Below are positions 3,633 through 46,100 of a DNA stretch of 64,000 nt, piece by piece. The notes below the pieces were generated by a model. That model did no database searches, was not told the DNA's origin, and was given only the letters and a program-made list of their open reading frames with translations. This DNA is from Cetorhinus maximus (lineage: Eukaryota): contig NC_135879.1 in the NCBI RefSeq assembly GCF_964194155.1, forward strand, positions 24,986,001-25,050,000. Reading direction: 5' to 3'. Position numbers and translations under genes: made by a program. The stretch's first letter is position 1. The number at the start of each line of letters is the position of its first letter.

Positions 3633-3888
3633 TGTAGTAATTATGGTTTTATTAAGTGTGTAATGTACCTTTGCGAATAATACTTGTTCAGCAAGATCAC
3701 ATGATCTGTAGTAACCAATAGGAGAGTAGCTCAGGCTACCTCTTCAGTCACTGTAGAGATAGAGTTGGAGTTGAAAGCACACGTGTAGTTGCTGCTGAGT
3801 ATATTGTAAATAAGCATAATTTTTCCACCCAAGAAGTGTCTGCAGATCAACTCTATCACTAGTAGTGCAACTCGACCACCCTACAACA
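3633..3888 (+). repeat. 5' LTR
   Basis: TGTAG...CTACAACA; directly repeated from 8038. Confidence 0.85.
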
Positions 3889-5149
3889 AACTGGCAAAGA
3901 GGATAAAACAGGATTTAACCAAAGAAATCATGTTAGAAAGAAATCAGCACTGTACCTCGCCCAGTGATTGTAAGGAACAAGCTCTGTTGGAATTGAAGAA
4001 GTTATCCTCTCTCAAACTGCCACAATTTGGGAGAATTGATCCTTTTGAACCAGAAGATTGATCTCAATACCTAGAACACCTCACGTTCATTTTTCAAGCG
4101 AACAAGATTACAGCAGAAGGGAACAAAGCCTACAGTCTGATTCAAAGTTTGATGGAACCCAGTGCCCCAGATTCAAAGAATGTCAATGAATTGGTGGATC
4201 TTGTGAAGGGTCACTTTCAACCCAAGCCCTCAGTCATGATGAAGAGGTTCAGGTTTAATTTGTGAAACAGAGCCCTGGGTGAGACAATTGCGTGCTGTGT
4301 GGCAAATCTAAAGCAGCTAATGGAACATTGTGAGTTTGGTATGGCTCTGAATGGCATGCTCAGAGATTGTTTAGTGTGTGGTGTGAAAGAGGACTCTGTT
4401 CAGAAAAGATTATTGTCTTAAGTGAATCTGGATTTCAAGGAGGAACTAGAGATAGCGCTGGCCATGGAAAGTGCAATAAGAGATTCAAAAGCAATACAGG
4501 GTGCACAAAATGGCACCTTCCTCCACACCGGGCGGGAAACCTCAACCGAAAGAGGCGCGAAAAAGCGGGACTCTGCTGAGAAGCAGGAAACAGTCCCCGC
4601 TAGCCAAAGAATAAAGAAAAATAACTTAAACAATCAGCCTTTTAATGAATGGCAGTTTAAAACAATCGAATGCTACTATTGTCACAGAAATGGACATATA
4701 ATGAGGCAATGCAAGGAAAGTTTCAAGCAGGTTTGTAAACAAAAGAAGAAGCCCAATGAAATCTACAATGTAGAAGAGCCTGAAGCAACAAATTCAGACA
4801 TTTACTTGTTGTTTAACCTGAAAGTTGGAAAGACAGAACCAATATTTGCTACAGTGAAAGTAAATGGCAAACCTGTTAGAATGGAAGTCAACATGGGAGC
4901 TTTCACTACAGTAATTAGGGAACATACCTTCAGCTATTTGAATAATGGTGAACATCAGCTAAGTTTAGAAGAAACAGCCGCCAAGCTAAAAACATACACA
5001 GTGAAAACATTCAAGCAAAAGGCATAAGCAGAGTAACTGTCCATTATGGAAGCTCATCGGCAGAACTACCAGTGTTAGTATTGAGAGACAGAGGACCAAG
5101 CCTTCTAGGGAAAAATTGGCTAAGGGAAATCAACCTTGATTGACCACTG

Positions 5150-5750
5150 AGATTTCCAAAAGGAAGCTAGAAGCATTTGTGTTTTGAAAAAGGAGTGTGT
5201 AAGGACTCAGTAACCTGAAGAAATGCAAGCAGTCCTGAGCCAAAACCTGGAAGAACAGCAGAAGGAACTCGAAGAGACCCTGCTTGATGACAGAGTTCGA
5301 GACGAGGTGAGCAACCTTCGAAGGGAAAAAGAAAACCTGTTGAAAGACCTTCACACACTACAAGATTCCCTCAGGTCAAAGTTTGTACATCTGGAAAAGT
5401 ATGAAGAGAAACAGAAAGAATTTGTCACCTCTCTGAATATACTGAAGAATGCTTTGGCAGAGAAGACACAGCAATGCTCAATTTTTCAGGAGACAGCAAA
5501 CAAATACTAAAAAGAGGCAGAAGAGCTGAAGAATCAGCTAAATGAAGCCAAAGAGGCTTTGGAAGCAAAAGTCGCAGAATTTCCCAAGAAACAGACAGAT
5601 AATGAAATTTTGGGAGACTCAGCCACTGAACTCAGACAAGTTGAGCTTGCATCTGAGAGAAGTCTAGCCAACAGTGAAGCCAAAAAGAAGGCTGAGATTA
5701 AAGTCTGTGCCAGAAAGAAGGAGGTACATAGAAAGAAGATACAGAAATAC
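5150..5750 (+). pseudogene. Host-like coiled-coil coding segment inside the Gypsy pol region (UACA/ANKRD24/RAI14-like)
   Basis: ORFs 5223..5510 and 5559..5753 are in one frame, separated by one TAA. E/K/L/Q-rich heptad sequence with no RT motifs, at the position where RT should be. Confidence 0.6.
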
Positions 5751-5796
5751 TAATAGGGATTTAATTCTCGCAACATACGGATGCACTTTCGTAATA

Positions 5797-6522
5797 GGAC
5801 AGGATTTTACCATCGGTGAACGGGCCCCGCCCCCGCTTGCCGACGTGTAAAATAACGCACGGTGACGCCGGGCGGAATTCCCGGCGTCAGCGTGCCCCAT
5901 TTAAATTTTCGGGAAGGCAGGGGCATAGCAAAATCAGCTGTGTGCCTGCCGACCTGTCAATGGCCAATTGAGGCCATTGACAGAGTCAATTAAGTAATTA
6001 AAGGACCTGCCTGTCCAACCTTAAGGTTGGCGGGCAGGCCAGGAGCCCCGGCGGAAATTAGAAAAAGCATGAATCCTCATCCACGGGCAAGATGAGGTTT
6101 CATGTAGGGTTTTAAAAATTTTTAATAAAGTTTTTGTAAAAACTATGGACATGTCCCAACTTATGTGACAGTGTCATATGAGGGGACATGTTAGGGAAAT
6201 TTTATCATTCTATTTTTAGCTTTTTTACATTTAGAGCCGATCTCCCTGAGGCAGCACTTAGCCTCAGGGAGATGAGTGCGCTCTTTCATGCGCATGCGCG
6301 AAAGAGTGCACTCTCGATTTTGGGATTCACCACCTCCCCCCACCGCCCGCACAGGGACCGCACAGCGCTTCTTCTGTGCAGACATCATGTTGGGTGGGCC
6401 AATGAAGGCCCGCCCACATAAAATGGCACCGTGCCCCCCAATCGGGGGCGCCGATCAGGAGAGAGAGAGCCTGTGTGCGCCCACCCTTCAACTTCGCCCC
6501 CGACGGGGGGAAAATCCTGCCC
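5797..6522 (+). mobile_element. Harbinger-type MITE family B, complete, nested in Gypsy pol
   Basis: TIRs GGACAGGATTTT / AAAATCCTGCCC; ATA on both flanks; splits the pol motif LILATY..TFV|HRSGNQIAN. Confidence 0.88.
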
Positions 6523-8037
6523 ATAGGTCTGGCAATCAAATCGCAAATGCCAATGCCCTTAGTTGTTTGCCTTTACAAGAAAATGATGAGCACGTCCCAG
6601 TTCCACAGGAACTTGTTTTACTGTTAATTTTCTTAGATTCCTCACCAGTATGTGCTCAAAAGATCAGAGATTGGACAAGTCGGGACCCAGTCCTATCTCA
6701 AGTACGAGAAGAAGTGCAACATGGTTGGTCACAGGAGCCTGTATCTGACTAAATGAAACCGTACTTCGACAGAAGACACGAAATAACCAGCCAGGATGGC
6801 ATCTTATAGTGGGGAGCACAAGTAACAGTCCCTCCAAGGGGAAGGGAGCCACTTTTAATTGAACTACACAGTGCCCATCCAGAAATTTCCCAAATGAAGA
6901 CCAAAGCATGCAGCTATCGATGGTGGCCTGGGATGGATGGTGAAATAGAGAGTTTAGTAAAGCACTGTGGGCAATGTCAGGAACTGAAAAAGTTGCCAGT
7001 GACAGCTCCATTACACCCATGGGAGTGGCCAGGTAGACCCTGGGTGTGGTTACACATTGACTACATTGGACCTTTCCTGGAAACAACGTTTCTGCTCATT
7101 GTGACACCCATTCAAAATGGTTGGATGTATATGAGGTGAAGTCACCAACATCGGCCACTACAATTAAGAAACTACATCAGAGTTTTGCCATTCACGGACT
7201 ACCAAAAGTAGTAATTTCTGATAACAGCACGGCATTTACAAGTGCTGAGTTTCAACAGTTTATTAGCCTCAACGGTATCACTCATGTGAAAACTGCACCG
7301 TACCACCCTTCCTTAAATGGACTGGTTGAAAGGGTGGTTCAAATGTTCAAGGCGGGCATGAGAAAACTATTTGGAGTTACAGGACTACCCTTCATACAAC
7401 AACAGGTATCACACCTGTGGATTTATTGTTGAAACGCCTTATCAGGATGAGATTGAGCTAAATAATGCTGGATTTAGAGGGGAATGTGGACAGGAGTCAG
7501 GGAAGCCAGGAAACCCGATACAACTGGCATAGTCGCGTAGAGAAATTTAACAGTGGAGAGCCGGAATACGTGAAAAACTTCAGGGAAGGACCAAATGGGT
7601 TACCGGGTGAAATAAGTTTGGTGGCTGGACCTCTATCTTACCATGTGTAGGTGGAAGGCCGGATCATCTGTAAACATGTGGACCATTTAAGGAAGAGAGG
7701 GACAAATCACTAAGATTTGGTTCCACCAGTGATCATGAATGAGTTTGCGTTTCCTGTTGAGAATACTCAACCCAGAACTGAAATGCCTGATGTCCCTGTA
7801 AGAGCTAAGGATACAGGACTGCAAGTGCCCACCAAAGTATCTGATGTTCAGGCAACTCTGGAAAAGGAGGTTCCTGATGAAGAATCTGAAGTTGTGAAGT
7901 TGCGACGTTCCACACGTACCAGGAAACCACCTGAAAATCTGAACTTGTAAATTCCTTACCCAGTGTAAATATTATGTTGTCTTGAAAATGATGTACTTGT
8001 AAATATAATATGTATAGCCGAGTTAAAGGGAGAGGAT

Positions 8038-8224
8038 TTTAGTTATTACGGTTTTATTTAGTGTGTAATATACCTTTAAGAATAATACTTGTTAGGCAAG
8101 ATCACATGATCCTGTAGTAACCAATAGGAGAGTAGCGTGTGATACCTCAGCAGTCAGTGTAGAGATAGAGTTAGAGTTGAAAGCACACATGTAGTTGCTG
8201 CTGAGTATATTGTAAGTAAACTTA
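8038..8224 (+). repeat. 3' LTR (truncated by a MITE insertion and a deletion)
   Basis: Closely matches 3633-~3815 (for example gcaagatcacatgatc...gtagttgctgctgagtatattgtaa) and follows the PPT. Confidence 0.85.
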
Positions 8225-11363: not shown

Positions 11364-14300
11364 GTTTTTTCTTATTCATTCATGGTATGTGCATGGTGCT
11401 GGCTAGGCCAGCATTTATTGCCCATTCCTAATTGCCCTTGAGAAGGTGGTGGTGAGCTGCCTTCTTCAACCGCTGCAGTGCCTGTGGTGTAGGTACACCC
11501 ACAATGCTGTTAGAGAGGGAGTTCCAGGATCTTGATCCAGCGACAGTGAAGGATCAGCGATATATTTCCAAGTCAGGATGGTGAATAGCTTGGAGGGGTG
11601 GTGGTGTTCCCATGTGTCTGCTGCCCTTGTCTTTCGAGATGGTAGTGGTCTTAGGTTTGGAAGGTGTTGTCTAAAGAACTTTGGTGAGTTCCTGCAGTGA
11701 GTGCATCCTGTAGATGGTACACACTGCTGCCACTGTGCATTGGTGGTGGAGGAAGTGAATGTTTGTGGATGGGGCGCCAATCAAACAGGCTGCTTTGTCC
11801 TGGATGGTATGAAGCTTCTTGAGTGTTGTTGGAGCTGCACTCATCCAGGCAAGTGGAAAGTATTCAATCACACTCCTGACTTGTGCCTGGTAGATGGTGG
11901 ACAGGCTTTGGGGAGTCAGAAGGTGAGTTATTCACCGCAGAATTCCTAGCCTCTGACCTGCTCTTATAGCACCATATTTATATGGCTAGTCCAGTTCAAT
12001 TTCTGGTCAGTAGTAACCCCCAGGATGTTGATAGTGGGGGATTCAGTGATGATAATGCCATTGAATGTCAAGGGGCGATGAGTAGATTCTCTCTTGTTGG
12101 AGACGATCATTGCCTGGCACTTGTGTGGTGTGAATGTTACTTGCCACTTGTTAGCCCAAGCCTGGATATTGTCCAGGTCTTGCTACATTTGGACATGGAT
12201 TGCTTCAGTATCTGAATGCTGTTGAACATTGTGCGATCATCAGCAAACATCCCCACTTCTGACCTCATGATGGAAGGAAGGTCATTGATGAAGCAGCTGA
12301 AGATGGTTGGCCCTAGGTCACTACCCTGAGGAACTCCTGCAGTGATGTCCTGGAGCTGAGATGATTGAACTCCAAAAACCACAACCATCTTCCTTTCGGC
12401 TAGGTATGACTCTAACCAGTGGAGAGTTTGCCCCTGATTCCCATTGACTCCAGTTTTGCTAGGGCTCCTTGATGTCACACTCGGTCAACTGCTGCCTTGG
12501 TGTCAAGGCCAGTCATTCTCACCTCACCTCTGGAGTTCAGCTCTTCTGTCCATGTTTGAACCAAGGCTGTAATGAGGTTGGGAGCTGAGTGGACCTGGGG
12601 GAACCCAAACTGAGCGTCAGTGAGCAGGTTATTGCTAAGCAAGTGCTGCTTGATAGCACTGTTGATGACCCCTTCCAACATTTTGCTGATGATGGAGAGT
12701 AGACTGATGGGGCGGTAATTGTCCGGGTTGGATTTATCCTGCATTTTGTGTACAGGACATACCTGGGCAATTTTCCACATTGCCGGGTGGATGCCAGTGT
12801 TGTAGCTGTACTGGAGCAGTTTGGCTAGGGGCTCGGCAAGTTCTGGAACAAAGGTTTTCTGTACTATTGCTGGAATATTGTCAGGGCCCATCACCTTTGT
12901 AGTATCCAGTGCCTTCAGCTGTTTCTTGCTATCACGTGGAGTGGATCTAATTAGCTGAACACTGGCATCTATGATGCTGGGGACCTCCAGAAGAGGCAGA
13001 GTTGGATCATCCACTCGGCACTCCTGGCAGAAGATTGTTGCAAATGCACTGATGTGCTGGGCTCCTGCATCATTGAGGATAGGGATATTTGTGGAGATTC
13101 CTGCTCCAGTGAGCTGTTTAATTGTCCACCCACATTCACAATTGGATTTGATAGGGCTGCAGAGCTTAGATTTAATCCATTGGTTATAGAATCGTTTAGC
13201 TCTGTCTGTCACTTGCTGCTTATACTGTTTGGCACACAAGTAGTCCTGTGTTATAGCTTCACCAGGCTGACACCTCATTTGTAGGTATGCCTGGTGCTGC
13301 TCCTGGCATGCCTTCCTGCACTCTTTAATGAACCATGGCTGATCCTCTGGCTTGGTGGTAATGATAGAGTGAGGATATGCTGTGCAATGAGGTTACATAG
13401 TGTCCTTGAGTACAATTCTGCAGCTGCTGATGGCCCACAGTACCTCATGGTTGCCCAGTCTTGAGTTGCTAGATCTGTTTGAAATCTATCCCATTTAGCA
13501 CGGTGGTAGTGAAACACAAAACAATGGAGGGTATCCTCAATATGAAGACCAGACTGCGTCTCCACAAGGACTATGCAGTGGTCATTCCTACTAATACTGT
13601 CATGGATAGATGCATCTGCAACAGGCAGGTTGGTGAGGATGAGGTCAAGTGTGTTTTTCCCTCTTGTTGGTTCACTCACCACCTTCCACAGACCCAGTCT
13701 AGCAGCTATGTCCTTTAAGACTTTGCCAGCTCAGTCTGTAGTGGTGCTACCAAGCCACTCTTGGTGATGGACATTGAAGTCCCCCACCCAGGGTATATTC
13801 TCAGTGCTTCCTCCATGTGGTGTTCAATCTGGAGGAGCACTGATTCATCAGCGGAGCAGTGGGGTGGGGAGGCAGTACATGGTAACCAGCAGGAGGTTTC
13901 CTTGCCCATGTTTGACCTGATGCAATAAGACTTCATGGGGTCTGAAGTTAATGCATTGAGGACTCCCAGGGCAACTCCCTCCTGACTGTATACCACTGTA
14001 CCACCACCTCTGCTGGGTCTGCCTGCCATTGGGACAGGGTGGTTGGTAACATTGGTATTTGGGACATTATTTTAAGGTATGATTCCGTAAGTATAACCAT
14101 GTCAGGTCACTGCTTGACTAGTCTGTGGGACAGCTCTCTCCATTTTGGCACTAGCCCCTTGATGTTAGTAAGGAGAACTTTGCAGAGTCGACAGTAATTT
14201 CCAGTGCCTAGGTCGATGCCAGGTGGTCTATCCAGTTTCATTCTTCATTGACTTGTTTTTAACAGTTTGACACAACTGAGTGGGCCATTTCAGAAGACAT

Positions 14301-42471: not shown

Positions 42472-42654
42472 TCAAATGGGAGAGAGCAGAGAGTGCAGAG
42501 TTAATAGACCTAAATATGTGAGGCGGAGAAAGTGAAGATGGCATTCAAAGTATGAAGGAGATGTGTAAGGACAAACTGTGCTGGGTAAAATGAGAGAAAA
42601 CCTGTGAGTAAGGAAGGAGACAGGACAGGTCTGGGCGCAGTTGCAGTATCTTAC
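42472..42654 (-). CDS. PCDH10: Intron-1 read-through tail of a putative short PCDH10 isoform
   Basis: The exon 1 frame stays open past the donor (SNE-VRYCNCAQ...LLSPI*). Short isoforms that read through the exon 1 donor are known for mammalian PCDH10. Confidence 0.45.
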   Translation of the reverse strand, partial: VRYCNCAQTCPVSFLTHRFSLILPSTVCPYTSPSYFECHLHFLRLTYLGLLTLHSLLSPI

Positions 42655-45132
42655 CTCGTTTGACAATATACTCCCATTGGAAATGATGTCAGGCTGCTGG
42701 TCCGTGTACCCAGTGATGATGGCGCCACAGGGATTGTGGTCAGCGTCCGTACTCCGGGCTGGGCTACAAGGTTTCAAGAACATGAGATCCGTTTTGGCCG
42801 ATTCCGGGGTCAGGCACACCTGGTAACAGTAATTCTGGCTGTGGTGCCCAAAGGTCCCTTCCTCCACCGAGACCTGAGCCGCGTTGGTGTTGCTGGTCTG
42901 CACCAGCATGATGTCCGATTTGCTGAGTTTCTTCTTCCTGTTCCTCGCCTGCCTGCAACAGGCGCAGCACTCGCCGGCCAGGCAGCTGTAGATGTTCAGC
43001 TTCTTGTCCTTCTGGCACCGAATGGCCAACCCGATCATGGCCAGGAGGAAGACGAAGGACACCGAGCCCAGGGCGATGATGAGGATGAGGGTCAAATCCA
43101 GCGAGTTGTCCTTGGGATTCCCGGCCCGGTTGCCCCGCTCCCCCTGGCGATCCACGGCGCTGTCCACGGCCAGCACAAGGATGGTGGCGGTGGCGGACAG
43201 AGGAGGTTGGCCATGGTCCCTCACCTCGATCAGGAGCTCGTAGGGGGCGCTGGGGTCCTTCTTGGTGCTGGGCAAGCGCCTGGCTGTCTTGAGCTCCCCA
43301 CTCCTCCAGTCCATCCTGAAGAGCCCCAGTTCATTGCCCTTGGCGATGTAGAAAGTGAGGCGGGCGTTATCCCCGTCATCCGCGTCCACCGCCACTAACC
43401 TGGCCACCAGGTAGCCCGGCTCGGCCGAGCGGGGCACGATTTCTTTGGCGCTGCCGTTCCTGGCCACGGGCGACACGATGGACGGCGCGTTGTCGTTTTC
43501 GTCCACGATGATGATGTTGATGGTGGTGTTGCTGCTCAGGGGAGGACTCCCTGAGTCCTTAGCCTGAACCGTGAAGCTGAATTCTTTAAGCTGCTCGTAA
43601 TCGAAAGAGCGCAAGGCGTACAGGTAGCCATTCTCTGAGTTTATAGAGACATAGGTGAAAACGGACATCCCCTGAATATCACACTCCAATATGGAGTAAG
43701 AGATATAGGCATTCTGCCCTACATCGGGGTCCACAGCAGTCACGGCGTAAATATAAGCCCCGGGAACGTTGTTCTCAGTGACATGCACATCGTAGGAAGG
43801 TTGCGAGAAGCTGGGTGCATTGTCGTTCTCATCAGCCACTTGCACCTTGATGGACTTGCTGGAGGCCAGAGGGGGTGAGCCCCTGTCCTTGGCCATGATG
43901 GTGATGGTGTAGGAGTCGGTGAGCTCCCGGTCCAGCGGCCCGTCCGTCACGATGGTGTAGTAATTCTTAAAGGACGATTTAAGTTTGAAGGGGACCTGGC
44001 CCAGGATCTCGCACTGCAGCTGCCCGTTCTCAGCCGAGTCGCGGTCGGTGACACTCAGGAGGGCCACCACGGTGCCCGGGGCTGCGCTCTCGTTCACCGA
44101 GTCGGACACGGTGCTGAAGCTGATCTCCGGGGCGTTGTCGTTCACGTCGGTAACTTTGACCAGCACTTTGCAGTGAGCCGGCACCGCGTTGGGCCCCAGA
44201 TCTTTCGCCTGCACGTAGATCTGGTGCAGGCTGCTCTCCTCGTAGTCGATCGCCCCCTTCACCTCGACCCAGCCGGTCCTGGGCTCGATGCTGAACAGCT
44301 CCTTGACCCGGGGCGAGACGTGGTTGCTGAACGAGTAGACCACCTCGCCGTTCTTGCCCTGGTCTCGGTCGGTGGCGTTCAGCTGGATGAGCAGGGTGCC
44401 CAGGGGCGCGTTCTCCGGCAGGCTCACCGTGTAGACGGACTGTTCGAAGACGGGCACGTTATCGTTGGAGTCCAGGACCCTGATGGTGAGCAGAGCCGTG
44501 CCCGTCCGCTGGGGGAGCCCCCCGTCCACCGCCGTCAGCACATACCGGTGCACCGCCTGCTGCTCCCGGTCCAGGGCTTTCTCCAGCACCAGCTCGGCGA
44601 ACTTGTTGCCGTCTCCTTGGGTCTGCACGTCCAGCTGGAAGTAACTGTTGGGGGTGATCTCGTAGGTGCGGAGCGAGTTGCTGCCCACGTCCGGGTCGAA
44701 GGCGCTCTCCAGCGGCAGGCGGGTGCCGGCGGACGCGCTCTCGGAGATCTCCACCGTCAGGTCGGACTCCGGGAAGCTGGGCGGGTTGTCGTTGATGTCC
44801 ACGATCTCGATCTCGACGCGGAAAAGTTCCAGGGGGTTCTCCAGGAAGACCTCGAGGTGCAGCAGGCAGCTCGGGCTCTGGCGGCAGATCTGCTCCCGGT
44901 CGATCTTCTCGTTGACGAACAGCACCCCGTTCTCCAGGTTGACCTCCAGGTACGGCGAACGGGAGCTCGCCACCGTCTGGAAGCGGCGTGCCGCCAGCTT
45001 GGTCACGTCCAAGCCCAAATCCTCGGCGATATTCCCCACGAAGGTCCCATGCTCCTGCTCCTCGGGCACCGAGTAGCGGATCTGGCAGGCAACGCGATCG
45101 ACCAGCATGCAAACCAGGAAAAAGAAGATCAT
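42655..45132 (-). CDS. PCDH10: Protocadherin-10 coding exon 1 (signal peptide, EC1-EC6, transmembrane segment, proximal cytoplasmic tail)
   Basis: ORF 42472..45138. First ATG at 45132 gives MIFFFLVCMLVDRVACQIRYSVPEEQEHGTFVGNIAEDLGLD. Repeated cadherin motifs (DxNDNxP, LDRE, AxDxG), TM segment LILIIALGSVSFVFLLAMIGLAI, and tail QNYCYQVCLTPESAKTDLMFLKPCSP...DIISNGSILSNE all match vertebrate PCDH10. Donor GAG|GTAAGA follows 42655; 2478 nt, phase 0. Confidence 0.97.
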
Positions 45133-46100
45133 CTCCACAGCGCGCGAACCACCTCTCGCCCTCTCGGAAGGAAGTTCAAGCGGTTGCTTTAGTTCTCTCT
45201 CTTTTTTTTTAAATAATAAAAAAATGTTTTTTTAAAAATAAAAAATAAAAAAAATTATCATTGACCTCGCACCCTCTCTCCTGCTTTGAATTTTTCATCA
45301 CATTTGTCCGCAGGAGCCAGTTACGTGAAGCAACCTCATCGCACACCCGAAGCTGAACAACTTCTGGCTTCTCTTTACTGAGTGAACGGCTCCTTTGATC
45401 CCTCACTGTTCAGCAGTGGCCTGGATGAAGAGATTCCCGGGGGTTTTAGCTTCGCATCAACCCCTCTGACAGAGCGGCCGGTCATATCTTCGATGTCAGC
45501 AACGACAGTTGAGGCGAGAGTTTCCCATCAGACACTTTTTTTTTTGTTTTTGGAGCTCTCCTCCCCTCATCTGGGTGTCCCTGGGTCTTTTTTTTGTTGT
45601 TATTTAAAACCTCTCTTTCCTTTCTCTGCAACACCCACTCTCCCCCCCCCCCACTACCACCACCACCTTCTTCCCTCCCCACTCCCAGTCTGCCACTCTT
45701 GAGCTTTCACTTCTGCTCTCTCTCCCCCCCACCCCCGCCTCCCCCTGCTTTCTCCGTTGCAGTGACCGGCTCCTGTGCACTTCCCTCTGCTGACAGATTG
45801 CAGCTCGCTGGGCTCCAGCGCTCTGCTTTTGCGTTGCGCCCTCTTCGCGCCAGCCAATGGCAGCCCCGGGCGCCTGGAGCCGCGCTCCGATTGGCTGGCG
45901 GCGGGGCACCGAGCGGCTGTGCGTCTGGCCCGGGCCGGCCAATCAGCGGGCAGAGCGGGCGGGACCCGCTCCCCTTCCCCCCCCCACCCCTTGGCCGCGC
46001 AGTTAACGTGCCAGTCTCTCGACTTGCCCAGAGTTAGTGGGCTGCACTAGTGTAGGTGCCCATACTAATCAGACCATATCACAGCGCATCTCCACACGAA
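45133..46100 (-). promoter_or_regulatory. PCDH10 5' UTR and CpG-island promoter with three CCAAT (NF-Y-type) boxes
   Basis: High GC and CpG density. CCAAT at 45854-45858 and 45939-45943, ATTGG at 45890-45894. No obvious TATA box. The transcription start is not resolvable from sequence. Confidence 0.7.

Follow-up and report, generated by a model that had tools for sequence, protein, structure and literature searches.

The window analysed here, a 64-kb stretch of shark DNA, holds an LTR retrotransposon in which sequence matching the host gene UACA (the cargo) stands where the reverse transcriptase (RT) would be. We resolved the element into the following features.

3633-8222, plus strand: whole LTR element, recognised by its LTRs, primer-binding site, polypurine tract (PPT) and domain order
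3633..3888, plus strand: 5' LTR (TG...ACA), common to the RT-bearing parent family P
3892..3905, plus strand: degenerate primer-binding site, which we take to be that for tRNA-Ser
4020..4800, plus strand: gag with zinc knuckle, broken in the window copy, assigned from full-length relatives (PF00098, E 0.008, below cut-off)
4840..5184, plus strand: aspartic protease (Pfam search, full-length relatives)
last ~140 nt up to 5184, plus strand: protease tail, 24-50% different from parent P, travelling with the cargo
5185..5533, plus strand: cargo piece 1, UACA coiled coil, ~aa 877-995 of P0001 (protein and host-gene matches)
5525..5636, plus strand: cargo piece 2, UACA, ~aa 1142-1180, joined to piece 1 by a 9-nt direct repeat
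5637..5756, plus strand: linker common to families 2 and 3, whose basic tail and two stops close the gag-PR-cargo frame
5757..5793, plus strand: last residues of RNase H, first part
5797..6522, no strand assigned: inverted-repeat (MITE-like) element with 12-bp terminal inverted repeats and ATA on either side, private to the window copy
6523..7950, plus strand: remainder of the RNase H tail, then integrase zinc finger, core and C-terminal part (PF17921, PF00665)
8022..8037, plus strand: polypurine tract
8038..8222, plus strand: 3' LTR (identity to the 5' LTR, 89%), truncated by a second inverted-repeat copy

Full-length gag-pol relatives match the element up to ~aa 390 (the protease end) and again from ~aa 840 (the RNase H tail). 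The element thus lacks about 450 RT and RNase H codons and has ~570 nt instead. The remaining parts are collinear with these relatives, in the order gag-PR-RT-RH-IN with integrase last, and the stretch after integrase aligns with their pol C-terminus up to the PPT, leaving no room for env. The host sequence lies in sense between both LTRs and replaces part of the internal ORF; parent family P has RT where the window's family, family 1, has the cargo. The element has no RT and RNase H of its own and is non-autonomous, as the original prediction had proposed. That prediction also described the RT motifs as replaced by a segment reading in one frame for ~175 codons, and we found 179 codons in one frame at 5214-5750 with one stop (5508-5510), followed by two stops at 5751-5756. 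Two of its statements stood only in part. The RNase H tail is present as quoted, but is split in the window copy by the inverted-repeat element; and of the proposed gag-pro-cargo-integrase order the gag-PR-cargo frame exists, but it stops after the cargo and integrase is read in another frame. A nested LINE ORF1 or other inserted transposable element was rejected as the identity of the segment, since RT is deleted rather than displaced, the protein matches are to UACA only and no transposable-element family was found in Pfam.

The remainder of the 3' LTR was not found in the 64-kb window. Since the window's 3' LTR is cut, target-site duplications were read at four wider family-1 loci, two of which show 5 bp, one being ambiguous and one mismatched. 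The second inverted-repeat copy occupies 8223-~8570 within the retrotransposon, and pieces related to this element occur in 12 fetched loci. Elsewhere in the window, a GC-rich region carries a protocadherin exon on the minus strand, a 919-codon open frame at 42475-45231 in which five cadherin repeats, Cadherin_2 and Cadherin_C_2 are recognised; the minus strand also has a LINE-type reverse transcriptase fragment at 12478-13730 (PF00078, E 1e-7).

The identity of the cargo was established by protein and nucleotide comparison. Searching the segment against longer proteins (3511 candidates) returned two matches, to a catshark UACA-like protein (53%, E 3e-19) and to sawshark UACA (E 2e-13), so that the UACA assignment of the original prediction holds beyond generic coiled-coil composition; Pfam gave the cargo generic coiled-coil matches only, below cut-off. 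The genome's own UACA gene, on G000 C27, is 80% identical to the catshark protein along one open exon of 911 codons, and over 301 nt it agrees with the cargo at 73% of nucleotides (E 5e-43). Judged by these matches, the cargo originates from host UACA. The ungapped alignment to UACA that had been claimed was not recovered. Instead, host positions h4297-4648 and h5090-5201 are fused in the cargo at a 9-nt repeat. The fusion removes 450 nt, there is one further gap of one codon, and the last ~115 nt of the segment are a linker without match at the corresponding place in the host gene. The linker had no match in the fetched UACA and TPR loci and only generic coiled coils in the Atlas. The UACA piece lies entirely inside that one host exon, with no intron there to lose.

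We then characterized family 1, starting from a first-look DNA search with 3519 candidates, of which 40 were scored. The protease runs into the cargo in 29/29 other loci, the cargo is joined directly to the RNase H tail in 26/29, and the inverted-repeat element is at the same place in none of the 29, which bears out a multicopy family with one common chimeric layout. A 23-mer over the cargo's internal junction occurs exactly 677 times (reversed control, 0), giving at least 677 copies; because it is exact in 18 of 30 sampled copies, the true number is probably above a thousand. Of 30 copies, 25 keep the cargo in the reading phase of the protease and 28 carry a stop at one or other of the two terminal codons. 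The breaks of the window copy near 5141-5153, 5211 and 5508 are absent from most others. Over 29 copies taken column by column, a single stop column interrupts the ~615 codons of the gag-PR-cargo frame. The RNase H tail and integrase are read in a separate frame, which stays open through 572 codons and shares ~210 nt with the cargo. No full gag-PR-cargo frame occurs in the best 150 of 9075 candidate cargo matches, the longest reaching 441 aa of ~620. Together with LTR pairs that are 83-89% identical, this indicates an old and decayed family. The catalytic Asp of the protease is present in 24 of 27 copies, which shows no selection because the backbone is nearly identical to that of P. Three family-1 cargo matches lie within 16 kb at G000 C3:202.20-202.22 Mb, possibly by local tandem duplication.

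Contigs of four runs that we guess to be RNA (two coded organisms, three studies) cover all 30 bins of the stretch, and several bridge protease and cargo; a flanking single-copy control gave no contigs, a comparison of multicopy target with single-copy control that cannot show LTR-driven transcription. The window interval 4900-5790 was also seen in runs of coded organisms A and B at ~0.4 of words and in contigs of organism C, and because it is present in all three, family 1 may predate a species split.

Family P comprises nine of the 30 RT-bearing loci, those that match the window at 72-94% in LTR, gag, protease or integrase. Counted by column, dS between family 1 and P is 0.16 for the protease, 0.03-0.07 for gag and 0.03 for the RNase H tail with integrase, and their copies form a single polytomous star in the tree (rough support values). 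Up to the final 130-150 nt ahead of the cargo, 0-7 columns in 100 differ; within that stretch the figure rises to 24 of 100 and 15 of 28, and none of the 30 RT loci matches this diverged protease tail above 63%. An old module of protease tail and cargo therefore sits on a young backbone, and we infer that it moved there by recombination, once or repeatedly.

Another LTR family of ~4 kb, family 2, carries longer UACA pieces, 80-88% identical to the host at the nucleotide level. In 18 of 19 UACA-bearing family-2 loci there is also a match to TPR (PF25481, E 8e-23; whale shark TPR, 68%, E 1e-42). Against the host TPR locus on C18, one family-2 copy joins eight exon pieces from 14 kb into ~680 nt, and most other copies join several TPR exon pieces: TPR was captured from spliced mRNA in the family-2 lineage. 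One family-2 subtype has the same 450-nt deletion and linker in 26 of 30 loci, followed by TPR. The linker departs from the host and matches family 2, and at 30 sites family 1 has the state of family 2 rather than that of the host, compared with 12 sites where it has that of the host rather than that of family 2. Because deletion and linker are shared, and the linker is absent there in the host, family 2 rather than host mRNA is the immediate donor; the family-1 cargo likely came from an older cargo-bearing LTR family, presumably by template switching. Of the original idea, host mRNA captured by template switching, RNA-level capture holds for the lineage, in which eight TPR exons are joined without introns; a direct host-mRNA donor does not. 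In a tree of piece 1, family 1 is one clade (100/100) whose attachment among family 2 and the host is left undecided; this tree omitted five rows, short or unmatched, and was not used for descent.

In family 2, UACA and TPR coils are encoded by one long frame free of stops. We presume its N-terminus to be Gag-like, for which Pfam, the Atlas and a gag profile built from 45 relatives gave no confirmation. No protease was seen in family 2, and no RT-bearing parent was among 30 loci, 28 of which have UACA downstream. Its subtypes differ in the order of UACA pieces (L043, L046 and L048-L050 versus L051-L053), one having the 3' piece and linker first. In L118-L147, ~350 nt of open coiled coil at ~2300-2650 in element orientation lie between UACA and TPR, possibly from a third host gene; neither the fetched UACA and TPR loci nor the Atlas revealed its source. 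After the N-terminal segment, L176 and L179 contain short tandem repeats coding GRQETP-like units whose number varies among family-2 copies, and L058 (G000 C10) holds a family-2-like TPR piece with a weak score to PF07926, an example of copies that confuse gene searches.

The cargo is present on more than one Gypsy backbone, a feature that the original prediction had missed, as it had the purifying selection described below. At one locus we found it before the integrase of a different backbone, Q, which is ~80% identical to the RT-bearing loci L078, L083 and L086. A search with the junction of this family 3, in which 40 of 3057 candidates were scored, yielded at least 40 near-full-length matches; gag-protease lies upstream in 11 of 12 loci and integrase downstream in all 12. 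Relative to family 1, the family-3 cargo is shorter at its 5' end and longer at its 3' end. The family-3 frame is stop-free for 529 codon columns and then stops, so that in families 1 and 3 alike the cargo is in frame from the protease with a stop before integrase. At 29 sites these two families have a common state that differs from family 2, and in both the frame shifts late in the linker, so that a common intermediate is likely; none was found. Candidate similarities at switch points are the 9-nt repeat at the internal deletion, a ~20-nt overlap inside the TPR piece and ~10 nt at the family-3 5' junction; family 1's own junctions are blurred by divergence.

To measure constraint on the cargo, dN/dS was computed by a counting method on column yardsticks of 12-30 copies. 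Comparison of family 2 with family 1 over 150 codons yielded a dS of 0.81, a dN of 0.26 and a dN/dS of 0.32 (CI 0.18-0.50) with no stop column, at a cargo divergence between the families of dS 0.7-0.8. For 24 deletion-type family-2 copies against 30 family-1 copies the ratio is 0.34 in frame, versus 0.62 and 0.78, with 9-14 stops, in the other frames; the two internal indels are whole codons. The core, residues 38-130, shows 0.18 (0.07-0.39), whereas the flanks give 0.52 and 0.73 with intervals that include 1, compatible with neutrality. Neutral simulations on the host piece with the copies' own mutation spectrum (200 each) had medians of 0.83-0.90, a lowest value of 0.41 in 400 runs and ~6 stops, only 0.5-1% being stop-free. 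Family 1 versus 3 gives 0.33 (0.20-0.55); the family 2 versus 1 value from that same comparison set takes in some codons beyond the late frameshift and is given no weight. For three TPR exons, host versus family 2, dS is 0.66, dN 0.077 and dN/dS 0.12, from which we infer a ratio of at most ~0.23 in the element lineage if at least half of the synonymous change took place there; host versus family 2 over UACA (0.43, CI 0.23-0.92) is uninformative. Within family 1, private variants are neutral (pN/pS 0.99), indicating that selection acted before insertion, and shared variants have a pN/pS of 0.42-0.56 in all four regions, a ratio that recurrent transitions can lower and that we set aside. Collectively, the comparisons of family 1 with families 2 and 3 indicate that the cargo was likely kept under protein-level purifying selection while the element was active.

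ESMFold2 modelled residues 38-130 as a parallel, in-register dimer, with a score of 0.46 (best of three controls, 0.00), pLDDT of at least 74 and runs agreeing in at least 67% of contacts. Among reference proteins, 21 of 30 microbial and 7 of 16 animal homodimers attained the dimer mark, against 0 of 23 monomers; coiled-coil dimers can pass it from likeness to solved structures. The predicted interface coincides with the most constrained part of the cargo: 45 of 54 interface residues are unchanged versus 24 of 39 others (p 0.03), with little difference in dN/dS (0.14 vs 0.19). The UACA-derived cargo is thus predicted to dimerise; the TPR coils are known to do so in TPR-MET. In HIV-1, RT-RT contact aids protease activation (PMC11998509), and a leucine zipper placed after the protease enhances Gag cleavage (PMC3291649).

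With moderate confidence, we propose an RT-less Gypsy element on which a selected and dimerising coil stands in for RT on Gag-protease. The gag-protease frame runs into the UACA coil, likely taken by template switching from the older cargo-bearing family, and then stops; the cargo was likely translated and selected while the element was active; the coil would dimerise, likely replacing RT in holding Gag-protease chains together; and RT, and probably integrase too, would be supplied by parent family P. A role in protease activation and particle assembly, by analogy with HIV-1, is the most speculative part. Against it, the HIV-1 zipper gave premature cleavage and fewer particles (PMC3291649), the interface dN/dS is barely below that of the rest, the cargo flanks are compatible with neutrality and the best 150 matches hold no intact frame. 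Moreover, family 2 keeps constrained coils (TPR dN/dS 0.12) with no protease seen, where the coil cannot serve a protease.

This last observation favours a broader scaffold role, a reading we regard as possible though distinctly less probable: the coil fused to Gag would cross-link or reshape the helper particle, or dock at a cellular structure, the shorter RT-less genome would be favoured in packaging, and protease activation would be incidental. The long stop-free UACA and TPR frame of family 2, the high copy number reached by each carrier family and the known existence of non-autonomous partners supplying Gag (PMC11302176) fit such a role, yet it leans on a Gag-like family-2 N-terminus that the profile searches above did not confirm. 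It is unlikely that the cargo is a harmless open spacer of no specific activity, purged of stops and helix-breakers for solubility, RNA stability or ribosome passage to integrase. The ~210-nt overlap with an integrase frame that is stop-free by column and the near-neutral flanks are what a spacer would leave, but a core dN/dS of 0.18 denotes amino-acid constraint beyond stop avoidance, families 1 and 3 both close the frame before integrase, and near identity to P (dS 0.03) explains the open integrase frame. It is very improbable that the copies stem from a single host-domesticated gag-PR-coil locus under selection; such a locus would account for constraint that brings the element no benefit, and contigs of the four guessed-RNA runs cover the stretch, but no intact frame is among the best 150 of 9075 candidates, the cargo is on two backbones, and a cargo dS of 0.7-0.8 against 0.22 for host versus family 2 fits a replicating lineage. 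A passive cargo, picked up a single time straight from host UACA mRNA and then carried along neutrally, is the usual outcome for LTR retrocopies (PMC5131818) and is left room by the piece-1 tree, but it is already largely refuted, and hardly credible, given the deletion and linker common to family 2 and a stop-free dN/dS below all 400 neutral simulations.

Our preferred reading, a selected coil in place of RT, combines features of several known systems. In acutely transforming retroviruses of the gag-onc type, host sequence replaces pol, is fused to gag and makes the virus dependent on a helper; unlike these, the shark element was seen without envelope and with no evidence of infection or transformation, and its cargo is structural rather than signalling. 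LTR-mediated retrocopies in animals (Tan et al. 2016, PMC5131818) have a partial mRNA replacing part of the internal ORF, as in the shark element, with short similarity at switch points, several parental genes and further rounds of retroposition, at a few young low-copy loci per species. In contrast, the shark families have hundreds to thousands of copies, backbone transfer and purifying selection on the cargo. Maize Bs1, as reviewed in PMC13317346, is an LTR element with pieces of several host genes and a new translated frame, and a title cited there refers to non-random cargo mutation; it is a plant element with a new chimeric gene, whereas ours is a vertebrate Gypsy with cargo in place of RT, fused to Gag-protease and on more than one backbone. 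LTR retrotransposons of bdelloids exchange accessory coding modules between retroelement types, but those modules are ORF3s of their own that follow pol in complete elements, have no host donor that is clear and do not depart significantly from neutrality (PMC5408684), unlike the shark module, whose donors are identified and which replaces RT. In the wheat pair RLG_Quinta/RLG_Cereba, the non-autonomous member has LTR motifs in common with its helper and continues to code for Gag, with no host-derived domain described in the text consulted (PMC11302176). Capture by LTR elements, multi-gene chimeras, re-transposition, exchange of extra ORFs and Gag-only partners are therefore already known. In the openly accessible literature that we searched, we came across neither UACA or TPR cargo in shark elements nor a selected host domain passed from one vertebrate Gypsy backbone to another; these families may stand without annotation in the repeat libraries of shark genome supplements.

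More generally, and only tentatively, shark satellite retroelements may use host coils, those of UACA and TPR, as a protein module that can be exchanged and that takes the place of RT, joined to Gag or to Gag-protease; the module would dimerise, steer the helper particle to the satellite's advantage and pass between backbones under selection. The thousands of UACA- and TPR-like fragments can mislead shark gene annotation and expression counts. Host sequence in animal LTR elements is usually read as passive cargo or as raw material for new host genes. Here the reverse is indicated: the element retained a host domain under protein-level selection, made at least hundreds of copies of it and carried it onto new backbones, which makes testable both the gain of host accessory proteins by non-autonomous retroelements and the structural contribution of RT to Gag-Pol.
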